Below, one piece after another: positions 35,618-58,227 of a stretch of 64,000 nt of DNA. The DNA lies in contig CACMLX010000003.1 in NCBI GenBank assembly GCA_902614655.1, positions 19,554 to 83,553 of the forward strand, read 5' to 3'. The translations under genes and the position numbers were made by a program. Source of the stretch: an uncultured Pelagibacteraceae bacterium (GTDB lineage Bacteria > Pseudomonadota > Alphaproteobacteria > Pelagibacterales > AG-422-B15). Numbering within the stretch: position 1 is the first letter of the stretch; each line of letters starts with the position of its first letter. A model generated the notes under the pieces. The model was not told the DNA's origin. It did not search any database and worked only from the letters and a program-made list of their open reading frames with translations.

Positions 35618-36679
35618 ATGGATCATAATTTAAAAAAAATCCGAGACTCTGTCATTGAGCACACTTTAAAGTTGGACAACGACCAACTTGCACTTTTATT
35701 ATTAATTCAACTTTCTCGTCATCAAAATCTATTTATTCACGAACCGTCAGATTGGGAAGATAGTCCAACAGGTTGGATTACAAAAGATCAAAGACTGCAA
35801 GATGAAGTAATTGCTATTTTGTCTTTTATAATACTTTTTTCATTTACGAATGCATATCATGATGAAAATTTATTTAAAGATCATAGAGCCGAAATTTTAG
35901 CAATGCATCCAGAAGACTTTCTTAATAATTCAATTTATCAGTCACCGTTTGGTCAATTTATTGGCAAAAAAATTACCATTGGTTCACTTTCAACTTATTT
36001 CAATATTCCAAAAGAAAGTATGAGAAGATATTTAAATTCAGTTTTAGAGAGTAATTTAATTAAAAAGGATTCAAAATATGGATATCTTGTGAATTTTGAA
36101 GCATATCAAGCATATATATTCACCAATTCATTAAGTAATATTTATAAATCAGTCATGCGCTCATTAAATGATTTTATAGTGAATTTAGAAGATTATTTTA
36201 AAATTAATTTTAATTTAAAACCTCTATCTTCAATCAATACAAAAAAATTTTCTCAGCCTAAATGGAACAGAGTACGATTACATCTATATCACTTCTGGGT
36301 AAGAATTCTTACTTTAGAAGGAAGCGATCAATCACTTTTACCAGCTGATCGCATAATACTCTCAGCTGCAGTATATTTTAAAAACAGACACGGTATATTA
36401 AAATATAATACCATTGAAGATCTATATGAAAGCGGACATCTTCTTCCAACAAATCTATCTTCAATTTCTGAGGCAGCAAAAATGCCACGTGAAACTGTAA
36501 GACGATCTAGTAAGAAATTAATTGAATTGAAACATCTTGAAAAAAAAGGGAGAAATATTTACCGAGTTAATTACCCAAAACTCAATGGAGAGGTGGATAT
36601 TTTTTTAAAATTTAAAGAATTAACTTTTACAGAAATGATGAACTTTTACTTTAATATTTACGAGGATTTAACGAGTTAA
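35618..36679 (+). CDS. Hypothetical protein with two winged-helix-like segments (possible regulator)
   Basis: 353 aa. Two HTH-like stretches: LSTYFNIPKESMRRYLNSVLESNLIKK and ISEAAKMPRETVRRSSKKLIELKHLEKKG. I recognise no family. The 3' end overlaps the 3' end of the TolC-like gene by 4 nt (convergent). Confidence 0.35.
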   Translation: MDHNLKKIRDSVIEHTLKLDNDQLALLLLIQLSRHQNLFIHEPSDWEDSPTGWITKDQRLQDEVIAILSFIILFSFTNAYHDENLFKDHRAEILAMHPEDFLNNSIYQSPFGQFIGKKITIGSLSTYFNIPKESMRRYLNSVLESNLIKKDSKYGYLVNFEAYQAYIFTNSLSNIYKSVMRSLNDFIVNLEDYFKINFNLKPLSSINTKKFSQPKWNRVRLHLYHFWVRILTLEGSDQSLLPADRIILSAAVYFKNRHGILKYNTIEDLYESGHLLPTNLSSISEAAKMPRETVRRSSKKLIELKHLEKKGRNIYRVNYPKLNGEVDIFLKFKELTFTEMMNFYFNIYEDLTS

Positions 36680-39498
36680 ATTGAGCACATCAGAATGACT
36701 TCTTCATTACAAGTTAGTTCAGCGTCAACAATTGAGCTATTCTCTGAACTTAATTTAGTATCAAGTTCTTCTAACATCGATTTAGCCTCAACCATAGGAA
36801 CTGGGCCGATTACTACTGAGAAGTCGTTTTTATCAAATTTTTCCACATTTATATCATATTTAAGGAAACGAGTATCAAAGCCCATTAAATCGTATATGTA
36901 ATTCATTAAGCTATTCGCCGAGTTCCCTCGTTTATATGACCCGATCTTAATATAAGCATACTCTGCATTTGATGAATCCTCTGAAATATTGTCATCTGAT
37001 GCAGTTGTTGCCTCGCTTGCTTGAGCGCTGAAAGAGCTAGTTTCAGCATCAACACTTGTATCCATAAGTTCATTTAAGTTTGCTAAAGCCTCTTCAGTCT
37101 CTTTAGCTAACTTTTCTTCAAGCTCTTGTTGAGCTTTTTTTTCTTCTAATTCTTTTTGTTTATTTTCTTCAATTAATTGAGCCAGTTCTTCTTTTGCATC
37201 AGTTGCTTCTGTTAATAGTTTTTCATTATCCATGAGTAATTGTTCATTATTAGCGATCAGCTGTTCGTTTTCTTGAATTAATTTTTTTGTTGGTAAAATA
37301 TTATTTTCTTCGACTGTATTAGTAGTAGTATCATTTTTAATTAAAGCTTTCTCTTCAGTATTTGCTTCAGCACCCTCACTAAAGATTTGATTATTGAATT
37401 CTAATGAACTCTGTTCTTCAGTTGATTGGTCAAAAGTACCGTAAAGCAATTGATCAACAGAATCCAAGAGATTGTTAAGATCGTCGGTAGATACATTACT
37501 AAATTCATATTCTGCTTCAATTGGCTCTGGTGGCGTTTCTTCAACTTCCATTCCTTCATCAACCTCGGTAGTTTCGATCGTAGTTTCTACAACTTGCTCT
37601 ATAGGTAAAGTTTCATTTTCATTACTTAAGCTTGACATACGTGCAAGCTCTTCTCTTGCTTTTTGACTTTCATTTGCAAGGAATGTTTCTTCATCAACAA
37701 ATTTCAAAATGAATTGGTCTTCGACTGAAACTAAAGCATTAGCAACAGAGATTTTTAGTTTAATACCTGATACACCTTCTGGAGGATTGCCGACTATAGA
37801 CAAATCAGAAGTAAGGAATGCAAGCCATCGAGGTAGATCACTTCCATCTTGTTGCGTAACCGAATATCTTAATTTGCCTGGACCAGTGATATTAAATGTA
37901 TCTTTAGATATATTAAATTTATTACTTGTTTGCGTTGTATTAATCGGGTCTGTGATCACTAGAAGTTGTGGGTTTTGATTATTAAGAGGAATATTAACTG
38001 CTGCTTGATAATTTACTCCCCACTCTGCTAAATTAGCTTTTATTTCAGTACTTAAATCCTCGATAGATAGGTTTTGATGATCAGTTGGTAAAATGTCTTT
38101 ACCAATTGATGCGTAAATCTGGCCAATACTGTGCTGCATTTCAGAGAAGGCTAAATCTTTTCTTAACTCTGCAACAAGAAGACTTGCCTCTTCTCGAATA
38201 ACCTCAAGTTCACCAAATCTTGAGACTTTTTGTGCATTTTGAACCTGCTTACTTATTCTTTGAGCTACATCTAAATACCTTTGTGCCGTATCATATTCTT
38301 CAATGGCTAGGTCATAATTAATGTTTGATAAATGGACTTGTGAAAGCACCGTCATTGCTATTGCTAAGTGTCTCTCGTTTATCAATTCTTGATTTGCTTT
38401 AGATGCTTTCCTTGATGCCCCTATTGAAAATATATCAAAAAGATTACCTCCAATCGACGCGCCGTATTCGGTAGTATCTTGGTTCATTAAAAATTGATTA
38501 TTCGTATATCCATAGGCTACATTAAACTTTAGACTCGGTATAAGGGCCAGCATAGCCGCACGAGTATCTTTACTAGAAATTCTTTTTTGATATCGACTTT
38601 CCATTAATTCTGGTCTTGAAATAAGTGCTATTTCTTCCATGGATTGAATATCCATATTTAAATTAGTTAAAAATGTATCATTTTTTGCAAGTGTAAACTT
38701 TTGGCTTGGTAACAAGCCCATCAAAGAAGCTAATTCATTTTTTGAATTAATTAATGCTCTTTGTTGTGTTTGCAATGTTCTTTGAACATCAAGCAATTCT
38801 TTTTGATAAAGTAAAGAGTCCATAGGAGCTGAAATTAAAAGTTCTTCAATATATTGAGAGTCTGATAAAGCATCTTCGACTTTTTCCAACAACGGTCTTA
38901 ACTTTCGAAGAAGCTTCTCAGATGCTTGTGCTTTCCAGTAAGAGCGAATTATGTCCCGTGTGATATTCTGTGTAGCTTTTCTCTCGAGCTCTTTCGCAAT
39001 TAAAAAACGATCAGCTTGTTGACCTGCTCTAATATAAGAAAGACCGAAGTCTAATGCATTCCATGTGAATTCAATATTTCTTGTACTTTGAGACCTGTCT
39101 CTTGATATTGTATATGACTGAGTGCCATCTAAGTCTGGAGCAGGTTCAGAGTCGCTTGTTACACCAACACTAGTCGAGGGTTGAATTTCCATAAATTTTG
39201 AGTAGCCAGCACTAAGAGCTATATCAGGCAGCATATCGAATTTTTGTAAGTCTCTTTGTCTTTGTGAGAGCGCAGACTCCATCACGCTTATCCTTAAGTC
39301 ACGATTATTTCTAACTGCAATTGCAATTGCAGTATGCAAATCAATATTTTGTAAAGATGTGTCAACTTCAAGATTTAACATATCTTCCGCAATTGAAAAA
39401 TTAAGAGACTCTTCATCAATTACTTTTGGAGATCTCGCACAAGCAACGAGCGCCAAGCATATGAAAAATAAAAATAATTTTTTTATTGAATTGACCAT
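36676..39498 (-). CDS. TolC/OEP-family outer-membrane lipoprotein with a C-terminal cadherin-like (Cadg) domain, acidic coiled coil and SPOR-like domain
   Basis: 940 aa. Lipobox LALVAC (Cys20). OEP-type repeats occupy about aa 45-475 (HTAIAIAVRNNRDLR...). Cadg-like LPRWLAFLTSDLSIVGNPPEG lies at aa 555-575 (nt about 37699-37971). A Glu/Gln-rich coiled coil spans aa 600-845. The SPOR-like C-terminus YIKIGSYKRGNSANSL...FSVVIGPVPMVEAKSMLEEL maps to nt about 36754-36963. Confidence 0.8.
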   Translation of the reverse strand: MVNSIKKLFLFFICLALVACARSPKVIDEESLNFSIAEDMLNLEVDTSLQNIDLHTAIAIAVRNNRDLRISVMESALSQRQRDLQKFDMLPDIALSAGYSKFMEIQPSTSVGVTSDSEPAPDLDGTQSYTISRDRSQSTRNIEFTWNALDFGLSYIRAGQQADRFLIAKELERKATQNITRDIIRSYWKAQASEKLLRKLRPLLEKVEDALSDSQYIEELLISAPMDSLLYQKELLDVQRTLQTQQRALINSKNELASLMGLLPSQKFTLAKNDTFLTNLNMDIQSMEEIALISRPELMESRYQKRISSKDTRAAMLALIPSLKFNVAYGYTNNQFLMNQDTTEYGASIGGNLFDIFSIGASRKASKANQELINERHLAIAMTVLSQVHLSNINYDLAIEEYDTAQRYLDVAQRISKQVQNAQKVSRFGELEVIREEASLLVAELRKDLAFSEMQHSIGQIYASIGKDILPTDHQNLSIEDLSTEIKANLAEWGVNYQAAVNIPLNNQNPQLLVITDPINTTQTSNKFNISKDTFNITGPGKLRYSVTQQDGSDLPRWLAFLTSDLSIVGNPPEGVSGIKLKISVANALVSVEDQFILKFVDEETFLANESQKAREELARMSSLSNENETLPIEQVVETTIETTEVDEGMEVEETPPEPIEAEYEFSNVSTDDLNNLLDSVDQLLYGTFDQSTEEQSSLEFNNQIFSEGAEANTEEKALIKNDTTTNTVEENNILPTKKLIQENEQLIANNEQLLMDNEKLLTEATDAKEELAQLIEENKQKELEEKKAQQELEEKLAKETEEALANLNELMDTSVDAETSSFSAQASEATTASDDNISEDSSNAEYAYIKIGSYKRGNSANSLMNYIYDLMGFDTRFLKYDINVEKFDKNDFSVVIGPVPMVEAKSMLEELDTKLSSENSSIVDAELTCNEEVILMCSI

Positions 39499-39705: not shown

Positions 39706-42700
39706 ATGACCAAAAAACTAATTCAGGCACTCGAACCCCGTATGATGCTCGATGGAGCTGCTGTTGCTACTGCAATTGATACGATCGATGATTTAGCAAA
39801 TTTGAATAAGACCGATTTAGATAAAAAAACAAAAGAAAATAATTTTAAAACCGATCAAGATACAAAACTTCCATTTGTAAATCGTGAGAGTATTAATCAA
39901 AATACACGAACAAAACAATTCGTGTTTATTGACAGCGCAGTGGATGATATTGAAGTCTTAATTGATAGTTTTGATTACAACACTGAAGTACACATCATAC
40001 AAAGTGAACAAGACGGGTTTGCTGAAATTGAAAATATTTTATCTAACGAATCTAATATTGATGCGTTGCACATCATCGGCCACGGTAGTGTTGGGCAAAT
40101 AGCATTTGGAACAGCTGTTTTAAACATTGATACACTTGATACTTACAGAGATACGTTAAAAACTATTGGTTTAAGTTTAACTGAGCAAGGTGATATCTTG
40201 TTTTATGGTTGTAACGTTGCGGCTGATCAAAATGGAGAAGTTTTCATTAAACAACTTGCAGATATAACCCAAGCGGATATTGCTGCATCTGATGATATTA
40301 CTGGTCATGGAGGTGATTGGGATTTAGAGAAACATGTCGGCATTATTGAAACTCAAAATGTAAGCGTTATAAATTATAATCACTCTCTTAGTAATGATGT
40401 TACTGCTATTCAAAACGCTTTTGAAAAACATGATGCAACCAATTTAAAAGCAGGTGGTGGAAATTTCTCAGGTAATAAAAATGGACAACAGGATCCAGAC
40501 GGTCAAAAAAGGTGGCTCATCACACAAGAAAAAGCAAATGTGACTACAGGTAGCACACTGAACTTTGATGTTGGTGTGACCGCAAACAGTTGGGATCCAG
40601 ATACAGATGGACCGGTAAACGTTTATATGGTCTATCTGAATGACGAAATCAATCGACGAGGATCGAGTGACCGAGGTATAGTTGATTTTACTTATGAAAT
40701 TTTAGGTGTTTTCACGACACCTGATAATACTAGATACATGAACGGTTATGTGACTTTAGGAAATAACGCTTACCCTGATAGTGGTGCTACGAAACTTGGT
40801 AAAAGGGATTTTGAGTACTCTGGTGGTGCACCTGGAAGTTTAACGTCAGGCAGTGATGGGTGGCAGGTCTCGAATGGTAATAAAAGAATAACACTTTCAG
40901 CTGATAACGGTGAAAAAGGTGACTTTATTCGTGTGGTCACAAAAGCCGCAACAACAAATAACGAGCCCGTAGGTAATAATGATGCCGGTTATATCAATGA
41001 AGACGCCGAGTTGAATGTTGGTAATGATGATGTCGCAAATGATGCTACACCTGATGCATCGGGTGAACATACTGGTGATGTTTTATTAAATGATACTGAT
41101 CTTGATAACGACCCACTGACTGTTAAGTCCATTAATGGAGGATCTCTTGGATCGCCAGTTGATGGCACTTATGGTACATTAACGCTCTATTCAACTGGTC
41201 GTTACACATACTCAGCTAATAAAGATGCTGCAGACACTCTGGATTCTGGGGATACAGTCACTGATACCTTTACTTATACCGTTACTGATCAAACTGATGA
41301 TGCTACCGCAACAATCACTATTACTATTGCAGGTTTAAATGATCCAATAACAGCTATAAACGATACAGATACTGTCCTTGAGGATGGAAGCATTTCAAGA
41401 AACACTTCTAGTACGTTTGAATTAGATCACGACGATACTGATCCTGATGGTGATGATACATCTGGTAACTTTACCATCTCAGCCATACGATTAGGGCGAT
41501 TGACAGGAGCACTAGGCGCATCAAAAACTGTAGGAGCCGAATTTACAACAACATACGGTACTGTAACCATTAATGCTGATGGGTCATACTCTTATGCAGC
41601 TGATCAAGCCGCAACAGACAATTTAGCAGCTGGCGCTACGCAGACTGACTATTTTGTTTACACAGTTACAGACGGCAATGGAAGTTCAGACTCAGCTGAA
41701 TTAGCAATTACCATTACAGGTGTAGGACCCGGAGCTGTAAATGATACTGACACCGTTGCTGAAAATGGTTCCCTCAATCGTAATGCAGCTGCCGGAGTGC
41801 TCGATAATGATAATGATGATGCAACAAAAGACTCAGAAAATTTAATTGTCACAGAGATCTCCTCCAACAGCACAGGTAATAGTGGCAATGCTACTCAAGG
41901 CGTACTTGGAACCTATGGTACCTTAACGGTTGCAGCTGATGGAAGTTACACATACACCGCAAATACTGCAGCAGCAGAGGCTTTAGCCGCAGGTGATAAC
42001 AGTCAAACTGATGTATTCACTTATAAAATGAAAGATGATAATGGCGTTAATGAAGCTCAAGCAACTTTGACTATTACAATACAAGGTCAAGATGATGATC
42101 CCGTTGCATCAGCAGACACAGGTGCAGCTAACGAAGATGGCCCGCAAGTTTCAGTCAATGCTGCAAGCGGTGTTTTAGCCAATGATACTGATGTAGATGC
42201 TGGAGAAACGCTAGAAGTTTCTGCTGTCGGAGGTAATGGATCAGCCGTTGGACAAGATGTTACAGGATCTCTCGGTACCTTGAATTTAGATGCAGATGGA
42301 TCTTATACATATATTGCTGACCAAGCTGGTGCAGATGCAATCACTGCAGGACAAACTGCAACAGATACATTTAATTACACCTTAACCGATGGCGAAGGAA
42401 CAACAAGCACTGTTAACTTAGTCATTACAGTTACTGGTAAAGGACCTGAAGGTGTTGCTGACACGGCATCTGTTGCTGAAAATGCAACGGTAGCTAAGAA
42501 TAATGCTTCCACAGATGGAGTACTTTCTAATGACGATGATAACGCTTCATTTGACCAAGAAAGTCTTGCTGTAACTGCAATTGTTGGAGCATCATCTGGA
42601 ACGGTTGGAGGTGAAACTACTGGTACTCACGGTACACTTACAATGAACGAAAATGGTACTTATTCTTACGAAGCAACCAACGATGCACTTGATGATGGAG

Positions 42701-45700
42701 AAACTGTTAATGATGTATTTACGTATACAGTTAAAGACGATGACAACAAAAACTCTAGCACCGCAACATTAACCATTGCTGTAACTGGAGCAAATGACCC
42801 AATTACTGCGACCGCTGACACGGATAATGTAAATGCAGGATCTACAATTACTCGAAGTGAAAGTGATGATGAAGAACTTGATCACGACGATACTGACCCT
42901 GATGGTGATGATATATCAGGTAGCTTTACTATTACTAATATCAGACATGGTTCTGATGATTATAACCCTGGTCAAGAAATTACGACATCAAAAGGTAGAT
43001 TAACAGTCAATGCCAATGGTTCTTATACTTACGTCGCTGATCAAAGCGGTTCAACAGGCTTATCAAATGGTGCTCAAGTAAATGATGTCTTTACATATAC
43101 AGTAAGAGATCACAGTGGAGGTGATACAGATACTGCGACACTTACAATTACAATTACAGGTTCAAATAACACCCCTCCAGTAGCGGATGACGTAGCAGTG
43201 GATGGTAATCCTGCAACAGGATACATAACAGAAGACCAAACATTAACAGTTGGTGATGGCTCAACCGGGGTTTCGGGAACCGATGGTAATAAAAATAATG
43301 AAAGTGGAGATAATACAGGGGACGTTTTAAATAATGATACAGATGTAGATGGACACACACTTACAGTTTCAGCTATTTCAGGAGGATCTGTCGGTGGCGC
43401 TGCGACAGGAACTTACGGAACGTTAACAATTCAAAGCACCGGTAATTACACCTACAATGCAAACAACGCAAACTCGATAGCAAAAGATGCAACAGCAACT
43501 GATGTATTTACTTATACAGTCAGTGATGGCAATGGTGGAACGGATACTGCGACCATAACCATCACTATTTTAGGAGTAAATGATGCTCCAAGCGCAAGCA
43601 ATGATATAAATGCAGTTGATGAAGATGCTACAGCAACAAAAAATGCTGGAGCAGGAGTACTTTCAAACGATAGTGATGTTGACACGGGTTCAAGTATGAC
43701 GGTGACAGGAATTACTGGAGCATCAGCAGGTTCAGTTGGTGGATCAACTGATGGCACTTATGGTACTCTGACCCTCAATTCTGATGGCAGTTATTCGTAT
43801 ACTGCTGATAAAGCAGCTGCTGATGCACTGGCACATAACGCAACGGCAAATGATGTATTCACTTATACAGTCACAGATAATGAGGGGGCTACTGCTACGG
43901 CAACTCTGACTATCACGGTAACCGGTAAGGGACCTGTTGGTTCAGCAGATACAGCTACAGCAACTGAAAGTCAGACATTAACAGTCAATGAGGCAGGTGG
44001 AGTATTAACAAATGACTCTGGTGGAGATACGGAAAGTCTCGCCGTTACAAATATTGAGTCAGGTGGTACGGGTAATACAGGCACTGCTGGTCAAGGTGTT
44101 TTAGGGACGTATGGTACTTTGACTATTGCAGCTGATGGAAGTTACACATACACACCAAACACAGCCGCTGCAGAAGCATTAGATGGTGGTGATACTGTTA
44201 CCGAAGTATTTACTTATACTGTAAAGGATGATGATGACAAAAACTCATCTACCGCAACGCTTACATTTACAATAAATGGAGCTAACGATGCAATCGTTGC
44301 TGTTGATGATACAGATAGCGTTAACGAGGATGCAACGGTTACAAGATTAATCAGTGACGACCAAGAACTCGATCACGATGATACTGATGTTGATGGTGAT
44401 GATACAAGCGGAAACTTTACAATTACTGATATCAGAACTGGTCCAAAGGATGGAACTGGAACTGACGGTACAGTTGGTGTTGCACTTACGGGTGAATTTG
44501 GAACTCTTACTGTTAATGCAGATGGTTCCTATACCTACGTTGCGGATCAAGATAAATCAGATCAATTGGTAACAAATCAAACAGGAACAGATATATTTAC
44601 ATACACAGTAAGTGATGGCACTGAAACGTCAACCGGACAACTAACGTTCACTGTGACAGGTATCAATGATAATGATCCAGTTGCTGTAGATGATACAGAC
44701 ACAGTCAAACGTGATGCAACAGTTTCTCGTGCTACTGGCACAGATTTAGCTATTAATGCCGATGATACAGATGCAGATGGTGAAACCTTAACTATTTCTG
44801 AAGTGCGTGTAGGCCAAACTGAGGGTGGAGGTAAAGGAGGTGCCGCTTCTGTTGGAAATGCTCTTGTGGGTACCTTCGGTACTTTGACTTTAAATGCTGA
44901 TGGTAGTTATACGTATGTTGCGGATCAGGACGCAGCCAACTCACTTAAACGAGGAGATAGTGCAGTAGATCATTTCAATTATACAGTTACTGATGGAACC
45001 AGGACAGATATTGGTGTTATTTCAATAACTGTTGAGGGTATCAGTGATCCACCTATTCCAATAGATGATACATTAGAAATTGATGCAGGGGCGCAAACTG
45101 AGAAAGATGCAACGCAAGGCGTGTTAATTAATGATACGGATCCTGATGGTGATACCTTATCAGTTAGTTCGTTCAGAACTGGGAAAGAGGGCAAAGGCAA
45201 CACAGGTACAAGCGGCACAATTGGAGAACCTCTATCTGGAATTTATGGTGATTTAACCATGAATTCTGATGGTAGTTACACGTATAAAGCAAATAATGCT
45301 GGGCCACTTAATCCTGGTGAAACAGCTACAGAGTTTTTTACATATCAAGCTTCTGATGGGGAGTCTTCTGTTGAAGCACAAATTGCAATTACTGTAACAG
45401 GTAAGAATGACCCTCCTGAAGTTGTGTACCCCTTAGATCTCTCACCAATATTTACTGGTCAAAAGATTAACATCAAATACAGACAAATATTTGATGATCC
45501 AGACACAGGTATATTTGATATTTCTGAATATAAAATAATTGATACAGAAACTGACGAAGAAACAAGTCTACCCGATGGTTTAAGACTAAAACAAAACAAG
45601 TTGACGGGAAGTCTTAGTGAACCTGGATTATATACTATTACTATCAGAGCAATAGATGGAGCTGGACTATCTACAGATTATACTTTCACAATTGATGTCC

Positions 45701-46791
45701 GAACCGCTCCTGGTTATACGGCCGAAAAAGAGACTTCTGATGAACAGAGACCTGCTTTTGATCCAGTTGTCGTCAAACCAAAGAAAGAGTTTTTGGCGGC
45801 CATCAATGATGTAATTAATGATGGAGCATCACTACCTGGCGATGATGGTTTCAATCTTGATACAGTTTCAATTGCTGACACCGCGTCTCTATCAAAACCG
45901 TTAAAATTTAATGGTGGTTTGAGATTGATGGATGCTGTTGTGAATGAAGTTTCGGGGGACTCAGAGTCAGATTTAAAAGTTGGTTTGAAATTAAATGATG
46001 ATAATCAAAAAAATGTGGAGTTATATTCAGGTCAGCTCTCTAATGGTGAAGCTTTACCAGAATGGATCAGAGTCAATCCTGAAACAGGAGAAACAACAGC
46101 CGACATGCCTGAAGGTGTTGAAGCAGTTGAGGTTCAGTTGGTAGCACTTGATAAGGATGGAAATACAAGAGATATAAATATTGTACTAGACAAAGCAAAA
46201 ATTAAAGGAGACCAAGACTTCGCACGTGGAGCCATTGATCAGGCAAGGGTAGTTGTTGATAATGATGCAAATGTAAACCTGATTAGGGAGAACAACAATT
46301 CATCTAATAACGCAGCAAATAATAATTTGAATGCTCAAACAGATTTTGAAGGCACTATGAAGCTAAGCAGTCTTCAAATGGATGCAGGTCAATTTACAGT
46401 TGATGTAATTGACGATAAACAGTCAGATGTGAAAATGTATAAAGCAGAACTCAAAGGTGGCGGCGCACTTCCAGACTGGATTACAATTGATCCTGAAACA
46501 GGAAAAATTGCAGCTGACCCCTCAAAAGGTAGAACAGGCTCAGCAGCTCCAGCATTCTTAACTGAAAGCCTTCAAGTTCTTGAATTAAAAATTATTGCTG
46601 AAGACGAAGATGGAAAAGAAAGAGTAATTGAAGTTGAGATTGATCTTAATGAAGTAACTGAAACTGAGACAGATGGTGAAAATTCTGCAACAAACGATGA
46701 AATCTCTTTCATTCCACTTGATGAACAATTAAAGCTTCATGCTAAAGCAGCAGATAGCTATGGCGAAAAGATTGTATCTCTAGTAAGTTAA
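39706..46791 (+). CDS. Giant (2361 aa) surface/secreted repeat protein: N-terminal LEPR-DGAA motif, DUF4347, unknown beta-rich module, 12 VCBS/cadherin-like repeats and C-terminal Cadg-like domains
   Basis: N-terminus MTKKLIQALEPRMMLDGAAVA has no Sec-type hydrophobic core. DUF4347 pattern FVFIDSAV...ALHIIGHGSVGQIAFG...ILFYGCNVAA...GGDWDLE covers aa 70-210. There are twelve repeats of about 100-130 aa ending ...FTYTVxDxxG...ATLTITVTGxNDxP. C-terminal LPDGLRL/LPEWIRVNPETGET/LPDWITIDPETGKI motifs are present. I found no GGxGxD RTX nonapeptides. Confidence 0.9.
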   Translation: MTKKLIQALEPRMMLDGAAVATAIDTIDDLANLNKTDLDKKTKENNFKTDQDTKLPFVNRESINQNTRTKQFVFIDSAVDDIEVLIDSFDYNTEVHIIQSEQDGFAEIENILSNESNIDALHIIGHGSVGQIAFGTAVLNIDTLDTYRDTLKTIGLSLTEQGDILFYGCNVAADQNGEVFIKQLADITQADIAASDDITGHGGDWDLEKHVGIIETQNVSVINYNHSLSNDVTAIQNAFEKHDATNLKAGGGNFSGNKNGQQDPDGQKRWLITQEKANVTTGSTLNFDVGVTANSWDPDTDGPVNVYMVYLNDEINRRGSSDRGIVDFTYEILGVFTTPDNTRYMNGYVTLGNNAYPDSGATKLGKRDFEYSGGAPGSLTSGSDGWQVSNGNKRITLSADNGEKGDFIRVVTKAATTNNEPVGNNDAGYINEDAELNVGNDDVANDATPDASGEHTGDVLLNDTDLDNDPLTVKSINGGSLGSPVDGTYGTLTLYSTGRYTYSANKDAADTLDSGDTVTDTFTYTVTDQTDDATATITITIAGLNDPITAINDTDTVLEDGSISRNTSSTFELDHDDTDPDGDDTSGNFTISAIRLGRLTGALGASKTVGAEFTTTYGTVTINADGSYSYAADQAATDNLAAGATQTDYFVYTVTDGNGSSDSAELAITITGVGPGAVNDTDTVAENGSLNRNAAAGVLDNDNDDATKDSENLIVTEISSNSTGNSGNATQGVLGTYGTLTVAADGSYTYTANTAAAEALAAGDNSQTDVFTYKMKDDNGVNEAQATLTITIQGQDDDPVASADTGAANEDGPQVSVNAASGVLANDTDVDAGETLEVSAVGGNGSAVGQDVTGSLGTLNLDADGSYTYIADQAGADAITAGQTATDTFNYTLTDGEGTTSTVNLVITVTGKGPEGVADTASVAENATVAKNNASTDGVLSNDDDNASFDQESLAVTAIVGASSGTVGGETTGTHGTLTMNENGTYSYEATNDALDDGETVNDVFTYTVKDDDNKNSSTATLTIAVTGANDPITATADTDNVNAGSTITRSESDDEELDHDDTDPDGDDISGSFTITNIRHGSDDYNPGQEITTSKGRLTVNANGSYTYVADQSGSTGLSNGAQVNDVFTYTVRDHSGGDTDTATLTITITGSNNTPPVADDVAVDGNPATGYITEDQTLTVGDGSTGVSGTDGNKNNESGDNTGDVLNNDTDVDGHTLTVSAISGGSVGGAATGTYGTLTIQSTGNYTYNANNANSIAKDATATDVFTYTVSDGNGGTDTATITITILGVNDAPSASNDINAVDEDATATKNAGAGVLSNDSDVDTGSSMTVTGITGASAGSVGGSTDGTYGTLTLNSDGSYSYTADKAAADALAHNATANDVFTYTVTDNEGATATATLTITVTGKGPVGSADTATATESQTLTVNEAGGVLTNDSGGDTESLAVTNIESGGTGNTGTAGQGVLGTYGTLTIAADGSYTYTPNTAAAEALDGGDTVTEVFTYTVKDDDDKNSSTATLTFTINGANDAIVAVDDTDSVNEDATVTRLISDDQELDHDDTDVDGDDTSGNFTITDIRTGPKDGTGTDGTVGVALTGEFGTLTVNADGSYTYVADQDKSDQLVTNQTGTDIFTYTVSDGTETSTGQLTFTVTGINDNDPVAVDDTDTVKRDATVSRATGTDLAINADDTDADGETLTISEVRVGQTEGGGKGGAASVGNALVGTFGTLTLNADGSYTYVADQDAANSLKRGDSAVDHFNYTVTDGTRTDIGVISITVEGISDPPIPIDDTLEIDAGAQTEKDATQGVLINDTDPDGDTLSVSSFRTGKEGKGNTGTSGTIGEPLSGIYGDLTMNSDGSYTYKANNAGPLNPGETATEFFTYQASDGESSVEAQIAITVTGKNDPPEVVYPLDLSPIFTGQKINIKYRQIFDDPDTGIFDISEYKIIDTETDEETSLPDGLRLKQNKLTGSLSEPGLYTITIRAIDGAGLSTDYTFTIDVRTAPGYTAEKETSDEQRPAFDPVVVKPKKEFLAAINDVINDGASLPGDDGFNLDTVSIADTASLSKPLKFNGGLRLMDAVVNEVSGDSESDLKVGLKLNDDNQKNVELYSGQLSNGEALPEWIRVNPETGETTADMPEGVEAVEVQLVALDKDGNTRDINIVLDKAKIKGDQDFARGAIDQARVVVDNDANVNLIRENNNSSNNAANNNLNAQTDFEGTMKLSSLQMDAGQFTVDVIDDKQSDVKMYKAELKGGGALPDWITIDPETGKIAADPSKGRTGSAAPAFLTESLQVLELKIIAEDEDGKERVIEVEIDLNEVTETETDGENSATNDEISFIPLDEQLKLHAKAADSYGEKIVSLVS
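40960..45420 (+). repeat. Array of 12 VCBS/cadherin-like coding repeats with higher-order duplication
   Basis: Repeat classes recur in order: R1 resembles R7, R2 resembles R6 and R10 (all carry ELDHDDTD(P/V)DGDD), and R3 resembles R9. Exact DNA identity occurs, e.g. the 26-mer gcagctgatggaagttacacatacac at 41933-41958 and 44128-44153. Confidence 0.85.
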
Positions 46792-46802
46792 TAATTACCT
46801 TT

Positions 46803-47522
46803 ATGAACAAAATTGTAACATTTGCGGTAATAGCGTGCTGCATATTATTTCCTTATAATTTGTCAGCAGAAGAATATTCCACCCGTGTCTTAGTAACTGC
46901 AACCCAAGAGGCAACACTCTCAAGTGAACTTGCTGCAAAAGTTGACTCAATTCCAATTGATGAAGGATCTGAATTTAAAGAGTCTGATATTTTAATTAAG
47001 TTTGACTGTTCATTTTTTGAAGAACAAAGAAAAGTTGTTGAAGCACAATTAGAGAGTGCGAGAGTAACTCTAAAGAGCAATCAAGACTTAGCATTAATGA
47101 GATCCATTGGTGAGTATGAAGTTCAGTTATCAGAAATCGATGTAAAGCGTGCAGAAGCTGAATTTCAGATTGCTAAACTCAATACAGATCGATGCATAAT
47201 TAAAGCCCCTTACGATGGCAAAGTATCCAAAGTGTTTGTAAATGAGTTTGAGAGTATTGAAAGGCAGCAGCCATTAGTTGAAATCATTGGTTCAGGCATT
47301 CTTGAGGCAAAATTGATTGTTTCAAGCAAGTGGTTGGCTTGGATCGATGAGGGATATCCCATGAAAATCAGCATTGATGAAAACGGTCTAACATATAGTG
47401 CCAAAATTTATACTATTGGCGTTGATATTGATCCTGTTAGTCAAACAATCGACATAACTGCAAAATTTGATGAAAATTATGATACATTACTGCCAGGTAT
47501 GAGTGGGACAGCAACGTTTTGA
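46803..47522 (+). CDS. Short periplasmic membrane-fusion (HlyD/RND-adaptor-like) protein
   Basis: 239 aa. Signal peptide, lipoyl-like hairpin halves (ATLSSELAAKVDSIPIDEGSEFKESDILIKFD ... IIKAPYDGKVSKVFVNEFESIERQQPLVEI) separated by a coiled coil. Lies 11 nt after the giant gene. Confidence 0.8.
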   Translation: MNKIVTFAVIACCILFPYNLSAEEYSTRVLVTATQEATLSSELAAKVDSIPIDEGSEFKESDILIKFDCSFFEEQRKVVEAQLESARVTLKSNQDLALMRSIGEYEVQLSEIDVKRAEAEFQIAKLNTDRCIIKAPYDGKVSKVFVNEFESIERQQPLVEIIGSGILEAKLIVSSKWLAWIDEGYPMKISIDENGLTYSAKIYTIGVDIDPVSQTIDITAKFDENYDTLLPGMSGTATF

Positions 47523-48856
47523 ATGACAATACTTCAATAAAAATAGCAAGATTAATTACTCTTGAGAAAAAATTTCGGACTGCAGAAAACATATCCGAAC
47601 TCGGATTCGTTTGTGCAAATGAGTTAAGAAGTGTTGTGGATTACAATTTTTTATTTTTTCTTACTAAATCTGCAACAGGTCGACAGAAAGTCCAAACAAT
47701 TTCAGATATTTCAGTTGTTGATAGAACTGCGCCGACAGTAAATTTTGTAGAAAGATTAATAAATAAAAAGAAGGTTGAAACGGGATTCTTTTCAGAAGTT
47801 TCAATTAGTGATTTAAGAGAAGATGATACAAATTTAGACTTACCTGAAAATTTTCCAAATGAGTTAATGGTTGTTCCATTAATTTCAAGAACAAAGGGTG
47901 ATTTAGGTTCTCTAGTTGTTGTACGATCTGTCAAAGTTTCAAATACAGAAAAAGAGCTTCTGCAACACATTGCTGAAACATTCAGTCATGCATTGGATTT
48001 ATTTTTATCTCAAGGATCGATTTTATCCTTTTTTGGTAGAATTTTTTCAGGTTGGCTAAAGTGGTTAATATTATCAGCAATCGCACTTGCAATGTTTATA
48101 CCAATTAATATATCCGCAGTAGCTCCAGTTGAGGTTATTGCTAAAAATCCATCAGTAGTTACATCACCAGTTAATGGTGTAGTGAAAAAAGTATTAGTTA
48201 ACACAAATGAAGCCGTTGATGTTGGCATGGAGCTCATTAAATTAGATGATCTCAATTTTAAATCTCAATACGAAATAAACTTACAAGAATTAGAAGTCGC
48301 TGAAGCAGAATTACTCAGGGCTAAACAATCCTCATTTACAAACGATGAGGCAAAAGCAAAGCTCGTTGAGCTATCAACTGAAGTTGCATTGAAGAAAAAG
48401 CAAGTTGCTTATGCCGAGGAACAATTAAAATATTCTGTCATAAAAGCGGAGGTTTCGGGAGTTGCTGTTGTTGAAGATTTTATTGATTGGCAAGGTCGTC
48501 CTGTAAATATAGGTGAAAAGATATTAACAATTGCCAATTCAAATGATATTGAGTTCTTAATCTACCTACCGACAAAAGACTCACTTTTTATTGAAAAATC
48601 AGCAAGAGTGAAGGTGTTTTTGGACAGCAGCCCACTCAACTCAATTGAAGGAAAAATAATAAGAACATCTTACAAACCTGAATTAACAGCTGAAAATATT
48701 CTTGCTTATAAAATACACGCTAGCCTCGAGGATAATATTGAGCCGCCGCGTATTGGATTACGAGGATCAGCAAAAATTTACGGAGATCGGACATCTCTTT
48801 TTTACTATATCTTCAGAGTTCCAATTAATATCAGCAGACAGTTTATAGGAATATAA
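47519..48856 (+). CDS. Membrane-fusion (HlyD-family) protein with an N-terminal cytoplasmic GAF-like domain
   Basis: 445 aa. About 165 aa cytoplasmic with a GAF-like core LMVVPLISRTKGDLGSLVVVRSVKVSNTEKELLQHIAETFSHAL. One TM (WLKWLILSAIALAMFIPI), then lipoyl (VTSPVNGVVKKVLVNTNEAVDVGMELIKLDD), coiled coil and beta-barrel. The TTG start overlaps the upstream TGA. Confidence 0.75.
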   Translation: MNDNTSIKIARLITLEKKFRTAENISELGFVCANELRSVVDYNFLFFLTKSATGRQKVQTISDISVVDRTAPTVNFVERLINKKKVETGFFSEVSISDLREDDTNLDLPENFPNELMVVPLISRTKGDLGSLVVVRSVKVSNTEKELLQHIAETFSHALDLFLSQGSILSFFGRIFSGWLKWLILSAIALAMFIPINISAVAPVEVIAKNPSVVTSPVNGVVKKVLVNTNEAVDVGMELIKLDDLNFKSQYEINLQELEVAEAELLRAKQSSFTNDEAKAKLVELSTEVALKKKQVAYAEEQLKYSVIKAEVSGVAVVEDFIDWQGRPVNIGEKILTIANSNDIEFLIYLPTKDSLFIEKSARVKVFLDSSPLNSIEGKIIRTSYKPELTAENILAYKIHASLEDNIEPPRIGLRGSAKIYGDRTSLFYYIFRVPINISRQFIGI

Positions 48857-50965
48857 ATGATTGTACCGTCTATCCGACAAGATCTGAAACTCAGTGAGGG
48901 ACCAAAGAAAGAGGACGGTTCAGCGTCGTGGCTTCTTTATGACTCACTAAGAAATAAATACTTTTCAATAAACAAAAAAGCATTTGATCTTCTTAAAAAT
49001 TGGTCAAGTGGAATTGAGACAACAGAATTTATTGAAAAAATTAAAAAAAGCAATCTGTCTATTACACAAGAAGAAATTGAAGAATTTATCAATTTTCTAA
49101 ATCTCAATAATTTAAGTATTAAAAAAACAGGTGATGAAGTTAAATCTTTAGTTGTTCAAAAAGAGAAACTTAATAAGCATTGGCTGTTAAAAATTATTCA
49201 TAATTATTTGTTCTTTAAAATCCCATTATTCAAACCAGGAAATGGTCTTGAAAACAGTTTACCTTTTGCATTGTTTCTTGGATCGCAAACCAGCAGACTC
49301 ATAATCTATACTCTGGGGATCATTGGTATTTTTTTAACAATCCAAAACTATGAAACATTTTTAACAACATTTTCTTATTTCTTTAATGTTAATGGATTGA
49401 TTTTGTTTGGTATAACGATTGTTTTTGTAAAGGCCTTGCACGAACTTGGGCACGCATATGTTGCCACTTATTATAAATGCAAAGTTTCTTCAATTGGTCT
49501 TGCAATGCTGGTTTTTTTCCCCTTCTTGTACACAGATACAACCGATGCTTATAAATTAACTGATCATAGAAAACGCTTACTGATTAATTTTGCAGGCATG
49601 CTGACTGAATTGCATCTTGCCCTGCTTGCTACATTTGTTTGGGCTGTAAGCCCTGAAGGTGTTATAAAAAGTGCCTCATTTTTTATTGCAACTTCAAGCT
49701 GGATATCATCACTTCTTATTAATATTAGTCCGTTTATGAGATTTGACGGATACTATGTGCTCTCAGATTTTCTTAAAGCGGAAAATCTTCAACCGCGCTC
49801 ATTTGCTCTAGGTCGATGGCAGATTAGAGAATGGATCTTTGGATTCAAATTCCAACCACCAGAACAACTCATGAGTCAAAGACGGTGGACTTTTATCATT
49901 TACGCATGGATGACATGGATATATCGCTTCTTCATATTTATTGGAATTGCCTTATTGGTCTATTATTTAACATTTAAAATTCTTGGCATCATTCTGTTCA
50001 TTATTGAGATTGTCTGGTTCATTTTACTACCAATTTGGAGAGAAATTAAACAGTGGTGGGGACTCAGAAGGTACATGCGTTTTAATTGGACTTCTTTGAG
50101 ATCAATTTTCATTTTTTCAGTTTTTTTGGCTGCAATGTTAGTACCATGGCGAAGTTCACTCAGTCTTCCTGCAGTGATTGATCGAGGTGAAGTGGTCGAT
50201 ATATATCCTACAGAAGCCTCTGAGATAAAAGAGATTTTTGTTATCTCAGATCAACAAGTCGAAAAGGGTGACTTATTAATCACAATGATGAGTCCGTCTT
50301 TATCAAATAAAGTTGATAAAGCAATTGAGCGCGTAAAGATGATACAACTAAAACTAGATCGTCGAATTGGATCAGAGGTTGATATGAGTAACCTCATGGT
50401 ATTAGAAAACCAATTAAAAGTAGAATTTGAAATTCTTAAAAGTCTTAAAGAAGAAAATAAAAATCTATCAATTTATGCACCAATGAGTGGGGTAATAAAA
50501 GACCTTAAGTATTTAAATAATGGACAATGGGTGAATATAAAAGAAAAATTATTTTCTATTGTTCAATTCAATGACACTAAAGTTGTTGCATTTATAAGTG
50601 AGAATGACTTGGACAAACTTGAAGGTAATACAAGCGGTTATTTTGTACCAAAAAATAATGAGTTTGATGAATCAGAAGTTGTCTTGGTTTCACAAAATAA
50701 TACATCGACAGAAGAACTTCCTTACTTATCATTAGTATCTACTTTTGGTGGATCAATTGCATCACGCGAAGTTAAGAGAGATGGAAAAGTTGTTTATCGA
50801 CCAGAAGAAGCTTTATACCAATTGAATTTTTCTACAAGTACAGAAGTTGAGACTGTTCAATGGCAAACAGCAGGTAAAGTAAAAATTCAAACTGAAAACT
50901 ATAATATTTTTCAAAATCTATTTAATTTGGTTTCATCAACATTAATTAGAGAAAGTGGATTTTAG
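48857..50965 (+). CDS. Site-2 protease (peptidase M50) fused to a C-terminal HlyD-like periplasmic domain, with an N-terminal PqqD/RRE-like cytoplasmic domain
   Basis: 702 aa. HELGH at nt 49439-49453 and second S2P motif NISPFMRFDG at 49721-49750, both in TM helices. The C-terminal approx 260 aa have lipoyl-like (IYPTEASEIKEIFVISDQQVEKGDLLITM / IYAPMSGVIKDL) and coiled-coil segments. N-terminal WLLYDSLRNKYFSINKKAFDLLKNW...TQEEIEEFINFLNLNNL resembles PqqD/RRE. ATG immediately follows the upstream TAA. Confidence 0.8.
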   Translation: MIVPSIRQDLKLSEGPKKEDGSASWLLYDSLRNKYFSINKKAFDLLKNWSSGIETTEFIEKIKKSNLSITQEEIEEFINFLNLNNLSIKKTGDEVKSLVVQKEKLNKHWLLKIIHNYLFFKIPLFKPGNGLENSLPFALFLGSQTSRLIIYTLGIIGIFLTIQNYETFLTTFSYFFNVNGLILFGITIVFVKALHELGHAYVATYYKCKVSSIGLAMLVFFPFLYTDTTDAYKLTDHRKRLLINFAGMLTELHLALLATFVWAVSPEGVIKSASFFIATSSWISSLLINISPFMRFDGYYVLSDFLKAENLQPRSFALGRWQIREWIFGFKFQPPEQLMSQRRWTFIIYAWMTWIYRFFIFIGIALLVYYLTFKILGIILFIIEIVWFILLPIWREIKQWWGLRRYMRFNWTSLRSIFIFSVFLAAMLVPWRSSLSLPAVIDRGEVVDIYPTEASEIKEIFVISDQQVEKGDLLITMMSPSLSNKVDKAIERVKMIQLKLDRRIGSEVDMSNLMVLENQLKVEFEILKSLKEENKNLSIYAPMSGVIKDLKYLNNGQWVNIKEKLFSIVQFNDTKVVAFISENDLDKLEGNTSGYFVPKNNEFDESEVVLVSQNNTSTEELPYLSLVSTFGGSIASREVKRDGKVVYRPEEALYQLNFSTSTEVETVQWQTAGKVKIQTENYNIFQNLFNLVSSTLIRESGF

Positions 50966-51214: not shown

Positions 51215-51270
51215 CAAAACATATTTAATGCTACTACCTCAAATACTCATTCAGGAAAGTGGATTTTAGT
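51215..51270 (+). pseudogene. Degenerate relic of the 3' end of an M50-HlyD gene (duplicate of 50912-50966)
   Basis: Exact 16-mer gaaagtggattttagt at 50951-50966 and 51255-51270. Upstream, caaaacatatttaat (51215-51229) matches caaaatctatttaat (50912-50926). In the homologous frame the relic reads ...LIQESGF* against ...LIRESGF* in the intact gene. Confidence 0.6.
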
Positions 51271-51886
51271 TTATTTCAAGGCCGCCCTCAGTTTTGAGAA
51301 ACTCAGCAACATTTTCTATACCTTTATTATTCTTCATTTCACAAAAAATATAAGGCATGCCTGATCGGGCAGTTTCAACATCTAATTTCATTTGATCCAA
51401 ATCAACATTTACGTGATTTGCTAAATCGGTTTTATTGATGATTAGTAAATCAGATTTTCTTATTGCTGGCCCACCTTTGCGAGGAATATCACCTCCCATT
51501 CCAACATCAATTACATAGATTGATAAATCTACTAACTCTGGACTAAACGTTGCGGCCAAATTATCTCCACCTGACTCAATTAATAGCAATTGTAAATCAG
51601 GAAATTTTTGTTTCATTTCTTCTACAGCTAAGAGGTTGATCGAAGCATCCTCCCGAATAGCGGTATGAGGGCAACCACCTGTTTCAACGCCTTTAATTCT
51701 CTCAATTGGTAAAACTTGAGCTCTCATTAAATACTCGGCATCTTCTATTGTATAAATATCATTTGATATAACTGCCATTGAAATATTTTTAGATAAATTT
51801 TTGCACAAAGCCTCAGTAAGACTTGTTTTACCTGCACCAACTGGGCCGCCAATACCAATCTTTAAAGGACCTCGAAAATTATTCAC
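51266..51886 (-). CDS. ureG: Urease accessory GTPase UreG
   Basis: 206 aa. P-loop [20 protein letters not shown] and ESGGDNL motifs. Confidence 0.97.
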
Positions 51887-52542
51887 GTGACGTAAATTCT
51901 AGATTTAAGATTTTCGTGTTTCATACTGTAAATATCCGCATAAAACGTAGAACTGCGTAAATCGTCTAAGTTATAGTCTCTCATCGTATTATGAAAACTT
52001 TTCATCATTCCAAGAAATGAAACCATACAATCTTGACCATCTTTCTGACTTAAAGGTATATGTTTAACGCACATATTAATTAAGTTTGAGATGAATGATT
52101 GAATATAAAAATCAACCAAATCATCAAAGGCAATATGAAATTTAATACCTGCTTGAGCAATACAGACTGGGAAAGTGGTCTCATTATCTATTGTATAGCC
52201 CCAACTTTCTGACATAATTTTTCTGAATGCATCTCCCATTTTAAGTGTTTCAAGTTGACGTTCCTTGGATGCGCAGTTTGCAAGTACTAAATCATTTATA
52301 TCAATTCCGCCATAGACAGCCTTGATAAAGATATACTCATTTCTGCATGTTCCTTCATAGAGAATACTCTTGATAAATTCTAATACGTCATTTTTATTTT
52401 TGATAAGCTTATCATCAATTATACCCTCAAGACCATGCGAATATGCGTATGAACCAATAGGAAATGAAGACGAAAACCAAAGATGTAAAATTTGATGAGA
52501 TTTTAAATCTAATAAGTTTTTACTTTTAATGTTTGTGACCAT
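51883..52542 (-). CDS. ureF: Urease accessory protein UreF
   Basis: Track ORF reaches 52590, but ATG 52542 (MVTNIKS...) limits the overlap with ureE to 17 nt. The [21 protein letters not shown] motif is typical of UreF. Confidence 0.85.
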
Positions 52543-52969
52543 GCGTTCTTCCCATACCGTAAGCCCCTCCTTCAGGATTAAATTGTTCAATCACAGATTT
52601 TGTCTGCCCCCCAAGTCTTCTCACCATATTCTCAATTATATGGTCACTTTGTATTAGAATTCTTGTAGCCTCAATCTGACAGGGGATATGTCTATTCCCA
52701 ATATGCCATATTAATTTATTTAAATCTTCTGACTTGATCTCAATTAAGTTTTCTTTTTTTGATTTTATAGTAATTAATTTTCCACTCTCAAGTTTGAACG
52801 CTTGATTACTCACGACTGATCTCATCTCTTCAAGATCAACAAGAAATTCATGACCTTTGTCAGAAACTAATTTTTTGCGTCGCATGAATCTCTCCTCATA
52901 AGATAGCGAAATTGTATCAACCTCTTCAGAGGAATCACAGTTACTTAATATTGAATTACAAATTTCCAT
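52526..52969 (-). CDS. ureE: Urease accessory metallochaperone UreE
   Basis: 147 aa. WHIGNRHIP motif and His-containing tail GRTHGHKH. Position between ureC and ureF. Confidence 0.85.
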   Translation of the reverse strand: MEICNSILSNCDSSEEVDTISLSYEERFMRRKKLVSDKGHEFLVDLEEMRSVVSNQAFKLESGKLITIKSKKENLIEIKSEDLNKLIWHIGNRHIPCQIEATRILIQSDHIIENMVRRLGGQTKSVIEQFNPEGGAYGMGRTHGHKH

Positions 52970-52972
52970 AAG

Positions 52973-54679: not shown

Positions 54680-54984
54680 TTAATTTTTCCCATGACTTTT
54701 TTATTAAATCCAAATAACTTTTTTAGTCCCTGTATTTCAATAAGTTCAACATCTCTTGTTTGCCCTGGTTCAAACCTTACTGCGGTTCCAGATGAAATGT
54801 TTAGTCTCATACCTATGGCTTTTTTTCTATCGAATTCAAGACTTTCATTTGCTTCGCCAAAGTGATAGTGGCTGCCGACTTGAATTGGCCGATCACCAGT
54901 ATTGGAGACTTTCATTGTCAAACTCACTAAATCTTTATTTAAAATTATATCACTGTCACTTGTAATTATTTCTCCTGGAATCAT
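54676..54984 (-). CDS. ureB: Urease beta subunit
   Basis: 102 aa. Contains MIPGEI...[19 protein letters not shown]. Confidence 0.95.
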
Positions 54985-54991
54985 ATAATTC

Positions 54992-56088: not shown

Positions 56089-56288
56089 GAAATTATCATA
56101 GTGTTTTAATTTCAAGTTGACAAATAATTGTCATTTATTTTTATCATTAAAATTAAAGATACTATTTTGTAATATAAAAATTATATTTAAATTTTTTTTT
56201 GAGGATGTCATTTTGGCAAGTGTAAAGATTTGTATCCTTAATTTTTTTAAGAAAATATTTAGCAGTTAAAAAAATGAAAGGACGAATA

Positions 56289-58208: not shown

Positions 58209-58227
58209 TTTATTATATTTTTCAAAA

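Follow-up and report, generated by a model that had tools for sequence, protein, structure and literature searches.

How do the giant repeat proteins that begin with a LEPR-XLL motif and a DUF4347 domain reach the bacterial surface, and what is done by the membrane protein encoded beside them? Genes for giant repeat proteins rank with the largest in many Gram-negative bacteria, SAR11, the most abundant marine group, included. We came upon the question in a stretch of 64,000 nucleotides from an uncultured Pelagibacteraceae bacterium (contig CACMLX010000003.1; this whole stretch is the window, and positions are counted from its first letter), where a giant of this kind lies in one operon with a gene for a 702-residue fusion protein. 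The fusion has three parts: an N-terminal winged helix resembling the PqqD-like recognition elements of ribosomally synthesised and post-translationally modified peptide (RiPP) pathways (RiPP recognition element, RRE), a core of the M50 or site-2 protease family, and a periplasmic adaptor of the HlyD or membrane-fusion protein (MFP) type. On balance we lean towards the view that it is the inner-membrane core of a dedicated envelope-spanning apparatus, similar to a type I secretion system (T1SS), that serves the neighbouring LEPR-XLL/DUF4347 giant.

The three-part polypeptide had been proposed in a first-pass annotation of the same DNA, made from the sequence only, and is borne out by the open reading frame (ORF), by Pfam and by a full-length AlphaFold2 (AF2) model with a predicted local distance difference test (pLDDT) score of 87.3. 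Homologues are plentiful. A word-indexed search with the fusion returned 3945 of them, the closest named ones being from Candidatus Pelagibacter at about 50% identity, and in an exhaustive HMMER scan against 50%-identity cluster representatives 10584 clusters matched at E<=1e-3, 2443 of them also at E<=1e-30. Of the 150 best HMMER matches nearly all are about 700 residues long and collinear with the fusion from residue 1–5 to the end. With thousands of full-length, collinear homologues the ORF is real and not a chance one, and the triple fusion is, as far as such sequence clusters at E<=1e-30 can tell, very common. A single-cell genome of the Pelagibacteraceae (locus L008) encodes a protein 97% identical to that of the window over the fusion. 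Public annotation calls the homologues either “site-2 protease family protein” or “HlyD family efflux transporter periplasmic adaptor subunit”, and IMG labels them “putative peptide zinc metalloprotease”, a name of the YydH type.

The protease and adaptor parts are confirmed by Pfam, by sequence matches to the PDB and by Foldseek, and the fusion is a member of both the M50 and the MFP superfamilies. Its core scores 38 bits with Peptidase_M50 (PF02163; cutoff 27.2), and the structure of MjS2P (PDB ID: 3b4r) matches it around the HExxH region. The catalytic motifs HELGH and NISPFMRFDG lie exactly where the first-pass annotation had put them (Table 1). In alignments of 47 and of 129 homologues H195, E196, H199, N289, D297 and G298 are invariant, and P292 is invariant in the first alignment and nearly so in the second; because the catalytic residues are kept in this way, the protease is probably active. 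In the AF2 model the hydrophobic helices span residues 144–163, 178–205, 237–264, 269–289, 340–371, 374–402 and 411–428, with HELGH inside the helix 178–205 near its cytoplasmic end and the N289 to D297–G298 segment following the helix 269–289, and loops rich in lysine and arginine alternate on one side of the membrane helices. These helices and this loop pattern predict an N-in/C-out topology, in which the RRE and the zinc site would face the cytoplasm and the adaptor would lie in the periplasm, in agreement with the earlier proposal of a cytoplasmic recognition side and a periplasmic adaptor side. The M50 fold, the HExxH within a transmembrane helix and the xDG third ligand are shared with RseP and SpoIVFB. 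Those enzymes differ in carrying PDZ or CBS domains and in serving sigma-factor signalling, and no such partners were found with the fusion.

The adaptor part has the order of lipoyl domain, alpha-hairpin and beta-barrel. Pfam recognises it as HlyD_D23 (35 bits, cutoff 30) and HlyD_3 (35.8 bits, cutoff 22.2), with an additional match to Biotin_lipoyl_2 or a lipoyl-like motif; among PDB sequences it matches HlyD (PDB ID: 8dck), ZneB and MacA, and Foldseek places it with MacA, EmrA, AcrA and MexA at E-values from 1e-13 to 1e-9. The T1SS-specific model TIGR01843 stays below its cutoff on the fusion (31 vs 208 bits).

The N-terminal domain is the part that would recognise a substrate. We modelled residues 1–125 with AF2 from an alignment of 129 sequences, and the pLDDT is about 90 over residues 1–90. 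Three strands (residues 11–14, 25–29 and 34–38) are followed by three helices (40–47, 55–64 and 71–83) and then by a long helix, and the order b1-b2-b3-a1-a2-a3 is that of the canonical RRE winged helix-turn-helix; residues 92–125 form linker helices and a strand that join the domain to the protease core. When the model is compared with the PDB by Foldseek, the top nine matches are all leader-peptide-binding RREs (probability 0.92–1.0) and the rest are noise, so that these are its only credible neighbours. They are TbiB1 with its leader (PDB IDs: 5v1u; 5v1v), CteB, a sactipeptide enzyme (5wgg; 5why), and a leader-bound lasso B1 protein (6jx3), and the target-normalised TM-score is 0.56–0.65 for stand-alone RRE proteins. 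Weak matches to the domain alone come from the NCBIfam model PqqD_rel_WgkC, a PqqD-family chaperone (E 0.002, 17.9 bits vs cutoff 110; 8 of 36 homologues match), and from the lasso PqqD models. Residues that are invariant or nearly so (W25, D29, R32, F36, F80, L81, N84 and L86) fall on beta2/beta3 and on alpha3, and it is this surface that usually forms the leader groove in complexes of RREs with leaders. As modelled by AF2, then, the domain has the RRE fold, as had been suggested, though the RRE proper covers about residues 1–90 and not the whole of the roughly 110 residues first assigned to it.

A related architecture is known. The best NCBIfam match of the whole fusion is NF041824, the daptide intramembrane metalloprotease (residues 23–391, E 6e-32), to which MpaP belongs, and MpaP is described as a leader-removing site-2 protease with an RRE fused to its N-terminus. 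The likeness thus extends to the succession of N-terminal RRE and M50 core and to the proposed RRE-dependent removal of an N-terminal leader. MpaP differs in having no fused adaptor, in its occurrence in Gram-positive Actinomycetota and Bacillota, in its short RiPP precursor, and in its tailoring enzymes MpaB/C/D/M, which are absent here. Since the score of the fusion (111.2 bits) is below the equivalog cutoff of 300 and the genes around it are not those of a daptide cluster (precursor peptides, DUF-RRE, oxidative decarboxylase, aminotransferase and methyltransferase) but the giant, the two adaptor genes, the gene for the outer-membrane factor and the urease operon, we regard it as a homologue of MpaP and not as a member of that family. 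The first-pass annotation knew of no characterised example of its kind; this does not hold for the RRE–M50 part, for which MpaP is one, but it does for the full RRE–M50–MFP fusion, of which our literature search found no description.

If the RRE binds a leader, the leading candidate is close at hand. The giant, which starts MTKKLIQALEPRMMLDGAAVA, was confirmed by translation and by Pfam to adjoin the fusion and to combine an LEPR-type N-terminus with DUF4347, and its motif takes the form LEPRxxFDGAAxAT. The first-pass annotation was not aware of a function assigned to the motif. It is already named, as the LEPR-XLL family NF012209, and what stands is that no paper we found tells how the DUF4347/LEPR class reaches the surface. 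The NF012209 model (cutoff 17) gives 15.0 bits on the full-length giant and 17.7 bits on a 256-residue N-terminal fragment, and it matches 20 of 29 N-termini of giants that adjoin the module. Export through Sec was considered and appears unlikely, with charged residues throughout the would-be h-region of the N-terminus. Neither repeats-in-toxin (RTX) repeats, nor HemolysinCabind, nor a known T1SS C-terminal domain was found in the giant with Pfam and NCBIfam. Many LEPR giants do share a motif about 30 residues from their end, of the form PLxEQL...YG..L or LTxQLQ...L..L (giants in loci L007 to L165), and those of the Nitrospira type end instead in a hydrophobic segment (..LPAW.SFDPLPVV..). The C-terminal motif could act as a further signal, for targeting or for anchoring.

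Two further features of the giant may be mentioned here. Its DUF4347 domain contains the conserved pattern aiHiisHG...GDILlYGCn and gives a weak Pfam match (E 0.088) to Peptidase_C80, the cysteine protease domain by which the MARTX and TcdA/TcdB toxins cleave themselves; the cysteine is kept in at least 90% of the homologues, and the histidine gives way to E or D in several of those from Nitrospira. The domain may be a clan-CD-like self-processing domain or a plug. The G+C content is 0.40–0.42 in the giant gene (40001–46000) and about 0.34 elsewhere in the window, a difference that probably reflects its Asp/Thr/Gly-rich repeats, and nothing points to a foreign origin.

The genes around the giant and the fusion supply the remaining parts of an envelope-spanning duct. 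On the plus strand the order is giant, 239-residue adaptor, 445-residue adaptor and, last, the fusion, with the gene for a TolC-like outer-membrane factor placed divergently upstream. The two adaptor genes overlap by 4 bp and the stop of the 445-residue adaptor abuts the start of the fusion, which suggests that the module genes are translationally coupled. The cytoplasmic N-domain of the 445-residue adaptor (47519–48040, +) gives sub-threshold GAF matches (E 0.036 and 0.073); it may sense a signal or contact the substrate, in analogy to the N-terminal cytoplasmic part of HlyD. The outer-membrane factor also has a weak match to TIGR01845. The TolC partner to which the fusion had been proposed to hand its substrate is encoded in the window; the hand-off itself we infer. 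Pfam, NCBIfam and the window annotation show no ATP-binding cassette (ABC), resistance-nodulation-division (RND) or major facilitator superfamily (MFS) transporter among the cluster genes, and Pfam and NCBIfam find no C39 or ABC domain in any module protein. As a side observation, the outer-membrane factor carries a C-terminal extension of about 440 residues with He_PIG (36676–37995, −), unusual for such factors, and its orthologues range from about 500 to 940 residues with an extension of varying length.

Whether this set of genes belongs together was judged from two samples of loci. One was seeded with the fusion and comprised 80 species-representative genome loci, taken from at least 570 matches; the other comprised 80 metagenome loci found with the giant motif (pattern LE[PSQ]Rx[MLV]FD[GA]A). 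The fusion-seeded loci come from Pelagibacteraceae, Rhodospirillales, Hyphomicrobium, Methylobacterium, Nitrospira (including N. defluvii) and Scalindua, and further from Desulfobacterota, Colwellia, Marinomonas, Methylococcaceae and many species of Pseudomonas, with P. stutzeri, P. nitroreducens and P. congelans as culturable carriers. Module genes were counted in the 58 of them that have at least 5 kb of upstream sequence. In 57 of these 58 the gene immediately before the fusion encodes an orthologue of the 445-residue adaptor, the small adaptor is present in 53, and the outer-membrane factor in 42 (and in many motif-seeded loci as well). For the giant we looked in all 80 loci for L-E-[PSQ]-R-x-x-F-D-[GA]-A near the N-terminus of a large ORF. 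A neighbouring large ORF bears the motif in 35, and 21 more have an ORF of at least 1000 residues without a visible motif, mostly because its N-terminus is off the locus; a giant is thus seen in 56 of the 80, and only two loci with full flanks are without one. The motif is also specific: all matches in ORFs of at least 150 residues fall in the first 100 or so residues of an ORF that adjoins the module, and no conserved leader-like peptide motif other than the N-terminus of the giant itself occurs in the neighbourhood.

The search in the opposite direction gives a similar picture. Among the motif-seeded loci 54 of 80 contain one or more module genes, including the fusion itself in 26 of those 54, and in the other 26 the downstream side is invisible because the giant ORF runs to the end of the contig or locus. 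The same five genes are found on contigs of Rhodovibrio, Nitrospira and Caenispirillum, and on SAR11 contigs giants of 6339–9101 residues are followed by the same three genes. The linkage of fusion and giant is tight, in both directions and across phyla, and the co-occurrence of LEPR giants with M50–HlyD fusions put forward in the first-pass annotation holds both ways within the sampled loci; we did not find that most LEPR-encoding genomes lack the fusion. The arrangement differs between groups. The module precedes the giant in Nitrospira and Pseudomonas and follows it in SAR11, and a Colwellia-like group (among L093–L097, L102, L106 and L164, metagenome) has the order outer-membrane factor, small adaptor, giant, 445-residue adaptor, fusion. 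The gene order varies and yet the set persists, so the set is kept together despite rearrangement. Its recurrence in many phyla makes it look like a machine not yet described, by which giant proteins would be recognised, trimmed and exported with no ABC pump of the usual kind.

Taken with the domain structure, these results fit the following sequence of events. The cytoplasmic RRE would capture the N-terminal leader of the giant, probably with LEPRxxFD as an added beta-strand, and the tract of small residues that follows (GAAxAT) would come to lie at the M50 zinc site, close to the cytoplasmic side of the membrane, where the leader would be cut off. The fused adaptor, the 239-residue lipoprotein and the 445-residue adaptor would together build a periplasmic duct, and the duct would dock on the dedicated TolC-like outer-membrane factor, by which route the repeat protein would reach the surface. 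The first-pass interpretation is thus supported in part: it agrees with the data wherever it could be computed, is mechanistically unproven, and is less unprecedented than was thought.

Several points weigh against this mechanism. Its main weakness is the lack in the module of an ATPase or any other known energiser for a substrate of 2000–9000 residues, and an energy source would have to be supposed. An ABC ATPase lies within about 5–7 kb in only 4 of the 58 genome loci and is syntenic in none, and we know of no M50 protease that translocates a folded substrate or one of 2000–9000 residues. What directs export could instead be the C-terminal motif shared by many giants, in the manner of classical T1SS. 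The counts of module genes cover the loci with long flanks, those with short flanks not being scorable. As to the RRE, membership of the PqqD family is sub-threshold in sequence overall: PF05402 (PqqD) does not match the isolated N-domain of the window protein and, of 36 homologues, matches only 2, below threshold, a search of PDB sequences with an N-domain profile found nothing, and the E-values of the RRE matches in Foldseek are modest (8e-3 to 0.1). Strong sequence divergence is usual among RREs. The RRE cannot be established from sequence alone, and the structure and the homology to MpaP are therefore needed for its assignment.

Because the C-terminal motif is shared among many giants, two other explanations stay alive. 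In one, the giant would be threaded out through the outer-membrane factor while its leader is clamped by the RRE, and cleavage by the M50 core would be a regulated release, comparable to that of LapA held in LapE. This would produce the same architecture and synteny as a dedicated export apparatus; a folded DUF4347 directly after the leader could act as the plug, the sensor-like domain of the 445-residue adaptor could gate the activity, and the separate C-terminal motif could lead export C-terminus-first. We think it unlikely, though worth keeping in view: nothing shows tethering, the GAF match that would make the adaptor a sensor is sub-threshold, no genes for cyclic di-GMP or of the LapD/LapG kind were seen in the module, and the energising component is missing here as well. 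Also improbable, and in our estimate a little more so, is that the module is an accessory to a classical T1SS encoded elsewhere, whose ABC protein would read the C-terminal signal and power transport while the fusion and the adaptors provide a duct and N-terminal trimming. The lack of an ABC gene in the module would then be explained, the C-terminal motif of many giants would be the signal, and among proteins of solved structure the adaptor part is indeed closest in sequence to the HlyD of a T1SS (8dck). However, the giant showed neither RTX repeats nor any C-terminal domain known from T1SS, and giants of the Nitrospira type have a different C-terminus. In T1SS operons the ABC and MFP genes are normally adjacent, whereas here a dedicated outer-membrane factor and three adaptors accompany the giant across phyla and an ABC gene never does.

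It is also conceivable that the fusion has nothing to do with the giant and is a protease for regulated intramembrane proteolysis, or a processing and efflux pump for small RiPP peptides, that happens to lie beside a large gene. Known RRE–M50 enzymes (MpaP) and other M50 proteases of RiPP pathways do act on short peptides, and the IMG label would suit such a role. Yet the synteny with LEPR giants runs in both directions across phyla, which makes the explanation very improbable, and the sole conserved leader-like motif nearby is the N-terminus of the giant. No RiPP tailoring gene and no sigma/anti-sigma pair is annotated among the ORFs that flank the module, in which short ORFs were not screened for precursors. 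A role in proteolytic signalling was rejected on the same ground, as no sigma or anti-sigma partner is annotated in the neighbourhood. A classical T1SS or a peptidase-containing ABC transporter (PCAT) is excluded by definition, because there is neither an ABC nor a C39 domain.

Comparison with known systems shows how the dedicated apparatus that we favour would resemble and depart from them. PCATs such as CvaB and ComA, working with HlyD and TolC, likewise place a leader-recognising protease in an inner-membrane exporter that is coupled by an MFP to a TolC-like channel; in them the protease is a C39 cysteine protease and the core an ATP-driven ABC protein, whereas here there are an RRE, an M50 protease and a fused adaptor with no ABC domain. 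The T1SS of giant adhesins (LapA with LapBCE, SiiE with SiiCDF) resemble the locus in their giant, repeat-rich surface protein without a Sec signal, in their dedicated MFP and TolC-like parts, and in an N-terminal region that probably has a special role. The locus differs from them in lacking an ABC gene in the module and RTX repeats and in having an LEPR leader and three different adaptors. LapG, moreover, is a periplasmic protease, while that of the fusion is intramembrane and faces the cytoplasm. EpeP/YydH and TglG/TmoG are, like the fusion, membrane M50 enzymes, and they process ribosomal peptides; EpeP/YydH is thought both to cleave its peptide and to export it. Their substrates are small, and they have neither a fused adaptor nor a module of outer-membrane factor and adaptors.

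A bolder proposal is that the five genes form a previously unrecognised class of envelope-spanning secretion system that is independent of ABC transporters, in which the leader bound by the RRE is the secretion signal. We put this forward tentatively, as possible but rather doubtful. The M50 protease would then be the inner-membrane component, with extra conserved transmembrane helices that carry the invariant charged residues R357, K374, E384 and E396, and the system would serve giants in many Gram-negative lineages, SAR11, Nitrospira and Pseudomonas among them. Our literature search found no description of the module with three adaptors and an outer-membrane factor, or of a coupling to LEPR-XLL/DUF4347, and in a review of tripartite pumps the sole text match to “M50” is the residue M507. 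What the locus offers is a tie between an orphan motif (LEPR-XLL), an orphan domain (DUF4347) and a specific, widespread machine, together with a concrete candidate receptor for the motif, the RRE, until now a hallmark of small-peptide natural-product pathways. If this is true, recognition of leaders by RREs would extend from RiPPs to megadalton proteins, and an intramembrane protease would join the inner-membrane partners of tripartite TolC-type systems. The question would bear on the cell-surface biology of SAR11 and Nitrospira, and it would be approachable in culturable Pseudomonas or Marinomonas.

Table 1. Features of the module in the window, with coordinates and the evidence for each.
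Feature	Position	Strand	Evidence or remarks
TolC-like outer-membrane factor, 940 aa, C-terminal Ig-like (He_PIG) extension	36676..39498	-	PF02321 OEP x2, E 2e-30
Giant repeat protein, 2361 aa, proposed substrate	39706..46791	+	LEPR-XLL leader, DUF4347, 12 VCBS/cadherin-like repeats
LEPR-XLL motif, giant aa 6-24, IQALEPRMMLDGAAVATAI, proposed RRE ligand/leader	39721..39777	+	NF012209
DUF4347 domain, giant aa 73-218	39922..40359	+	PF14252, E 3.5e-49
Conserved C-terminal motif of giant, ISFIPLDEQLKLHAKAADSYGEKIVSLVS	46702..46788	+	PLxEQL...YG..L, common to giants of several lineages
Small adaptor, 239 aa, lipobox-like signal peptide (VIAC)	46803..47522	+	TIGR01730 RND_mfp, 101.8 bits, cutoff 94.9
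Second adaptor, 445 aa	47519..48856	+	Cytoplasmic N-domain of ~170 aa, one transmembrane helix, HlyD-type periplasmic part
RRE-M50-MFP fusion gene	48857..50965	+	ATG start, stop within interval, 702 aa; Pfam M50 and HlyD domains
Cytoplasmic RRE/PqqD-like winged-helix domain, aa 1-90	48857..49126	+	AF2 fold, Foldseek, weak profile matches, NF041824 alignment
M50 (site-2 protease) membrane core, aa ~128-428, 7 predicted transmembrane helices	49238..50140	+	PF02163, MjS2P 3b4r, AF2
HELGH zinc-binding/catalytic motif, residues 195-199 (H195, E196, H199)	49439..49453	+	Read from sequence
NISPFMRFDG (N289..D297 G298), residues 289-298, likely third zinc ligand	49721..49750	+	Read from sequence
Periplasmic membrane-fusion (HlyD/periplasmic adaptor protein) domain, aa 431-702	50147..50962	+	Pfam, PDB sequence, Foldseek

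The genes on either side of the module are of other kinds. Directly downstream, on the opposite strand, six ORFs at 51266–56115 (−) fit ureG, ureF, ureE, ureC, ureB and ureA, with a ureD-like ORF at 55291–56115, as judged by their size, their order and a reading of the translations. Past this urease operon lie a gamma-glutamyltransferase and an ABC-2 exporter pair (56415–59912), neither of which is kept beside the module in other taxa. The exporter pair (58228–59912) was considered as a part of the module and rejected: it is 7 kb away behind the urease operon, and it is not counted because only the two nearest loci from Pelagibacteraceae (L007 and L008) share it, and other taxa do not. Upstream of the module are a type III glutamine synthetase (34208–35548, −) and a small ORF resembling an Asp/Arg beta-hydroxylase (33606–34205, +). 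The SAR11 loci L001–L003 also have nitrogen-assimilation genes (glutamine synthetase, glutamate synthase and Amt) beside the module.

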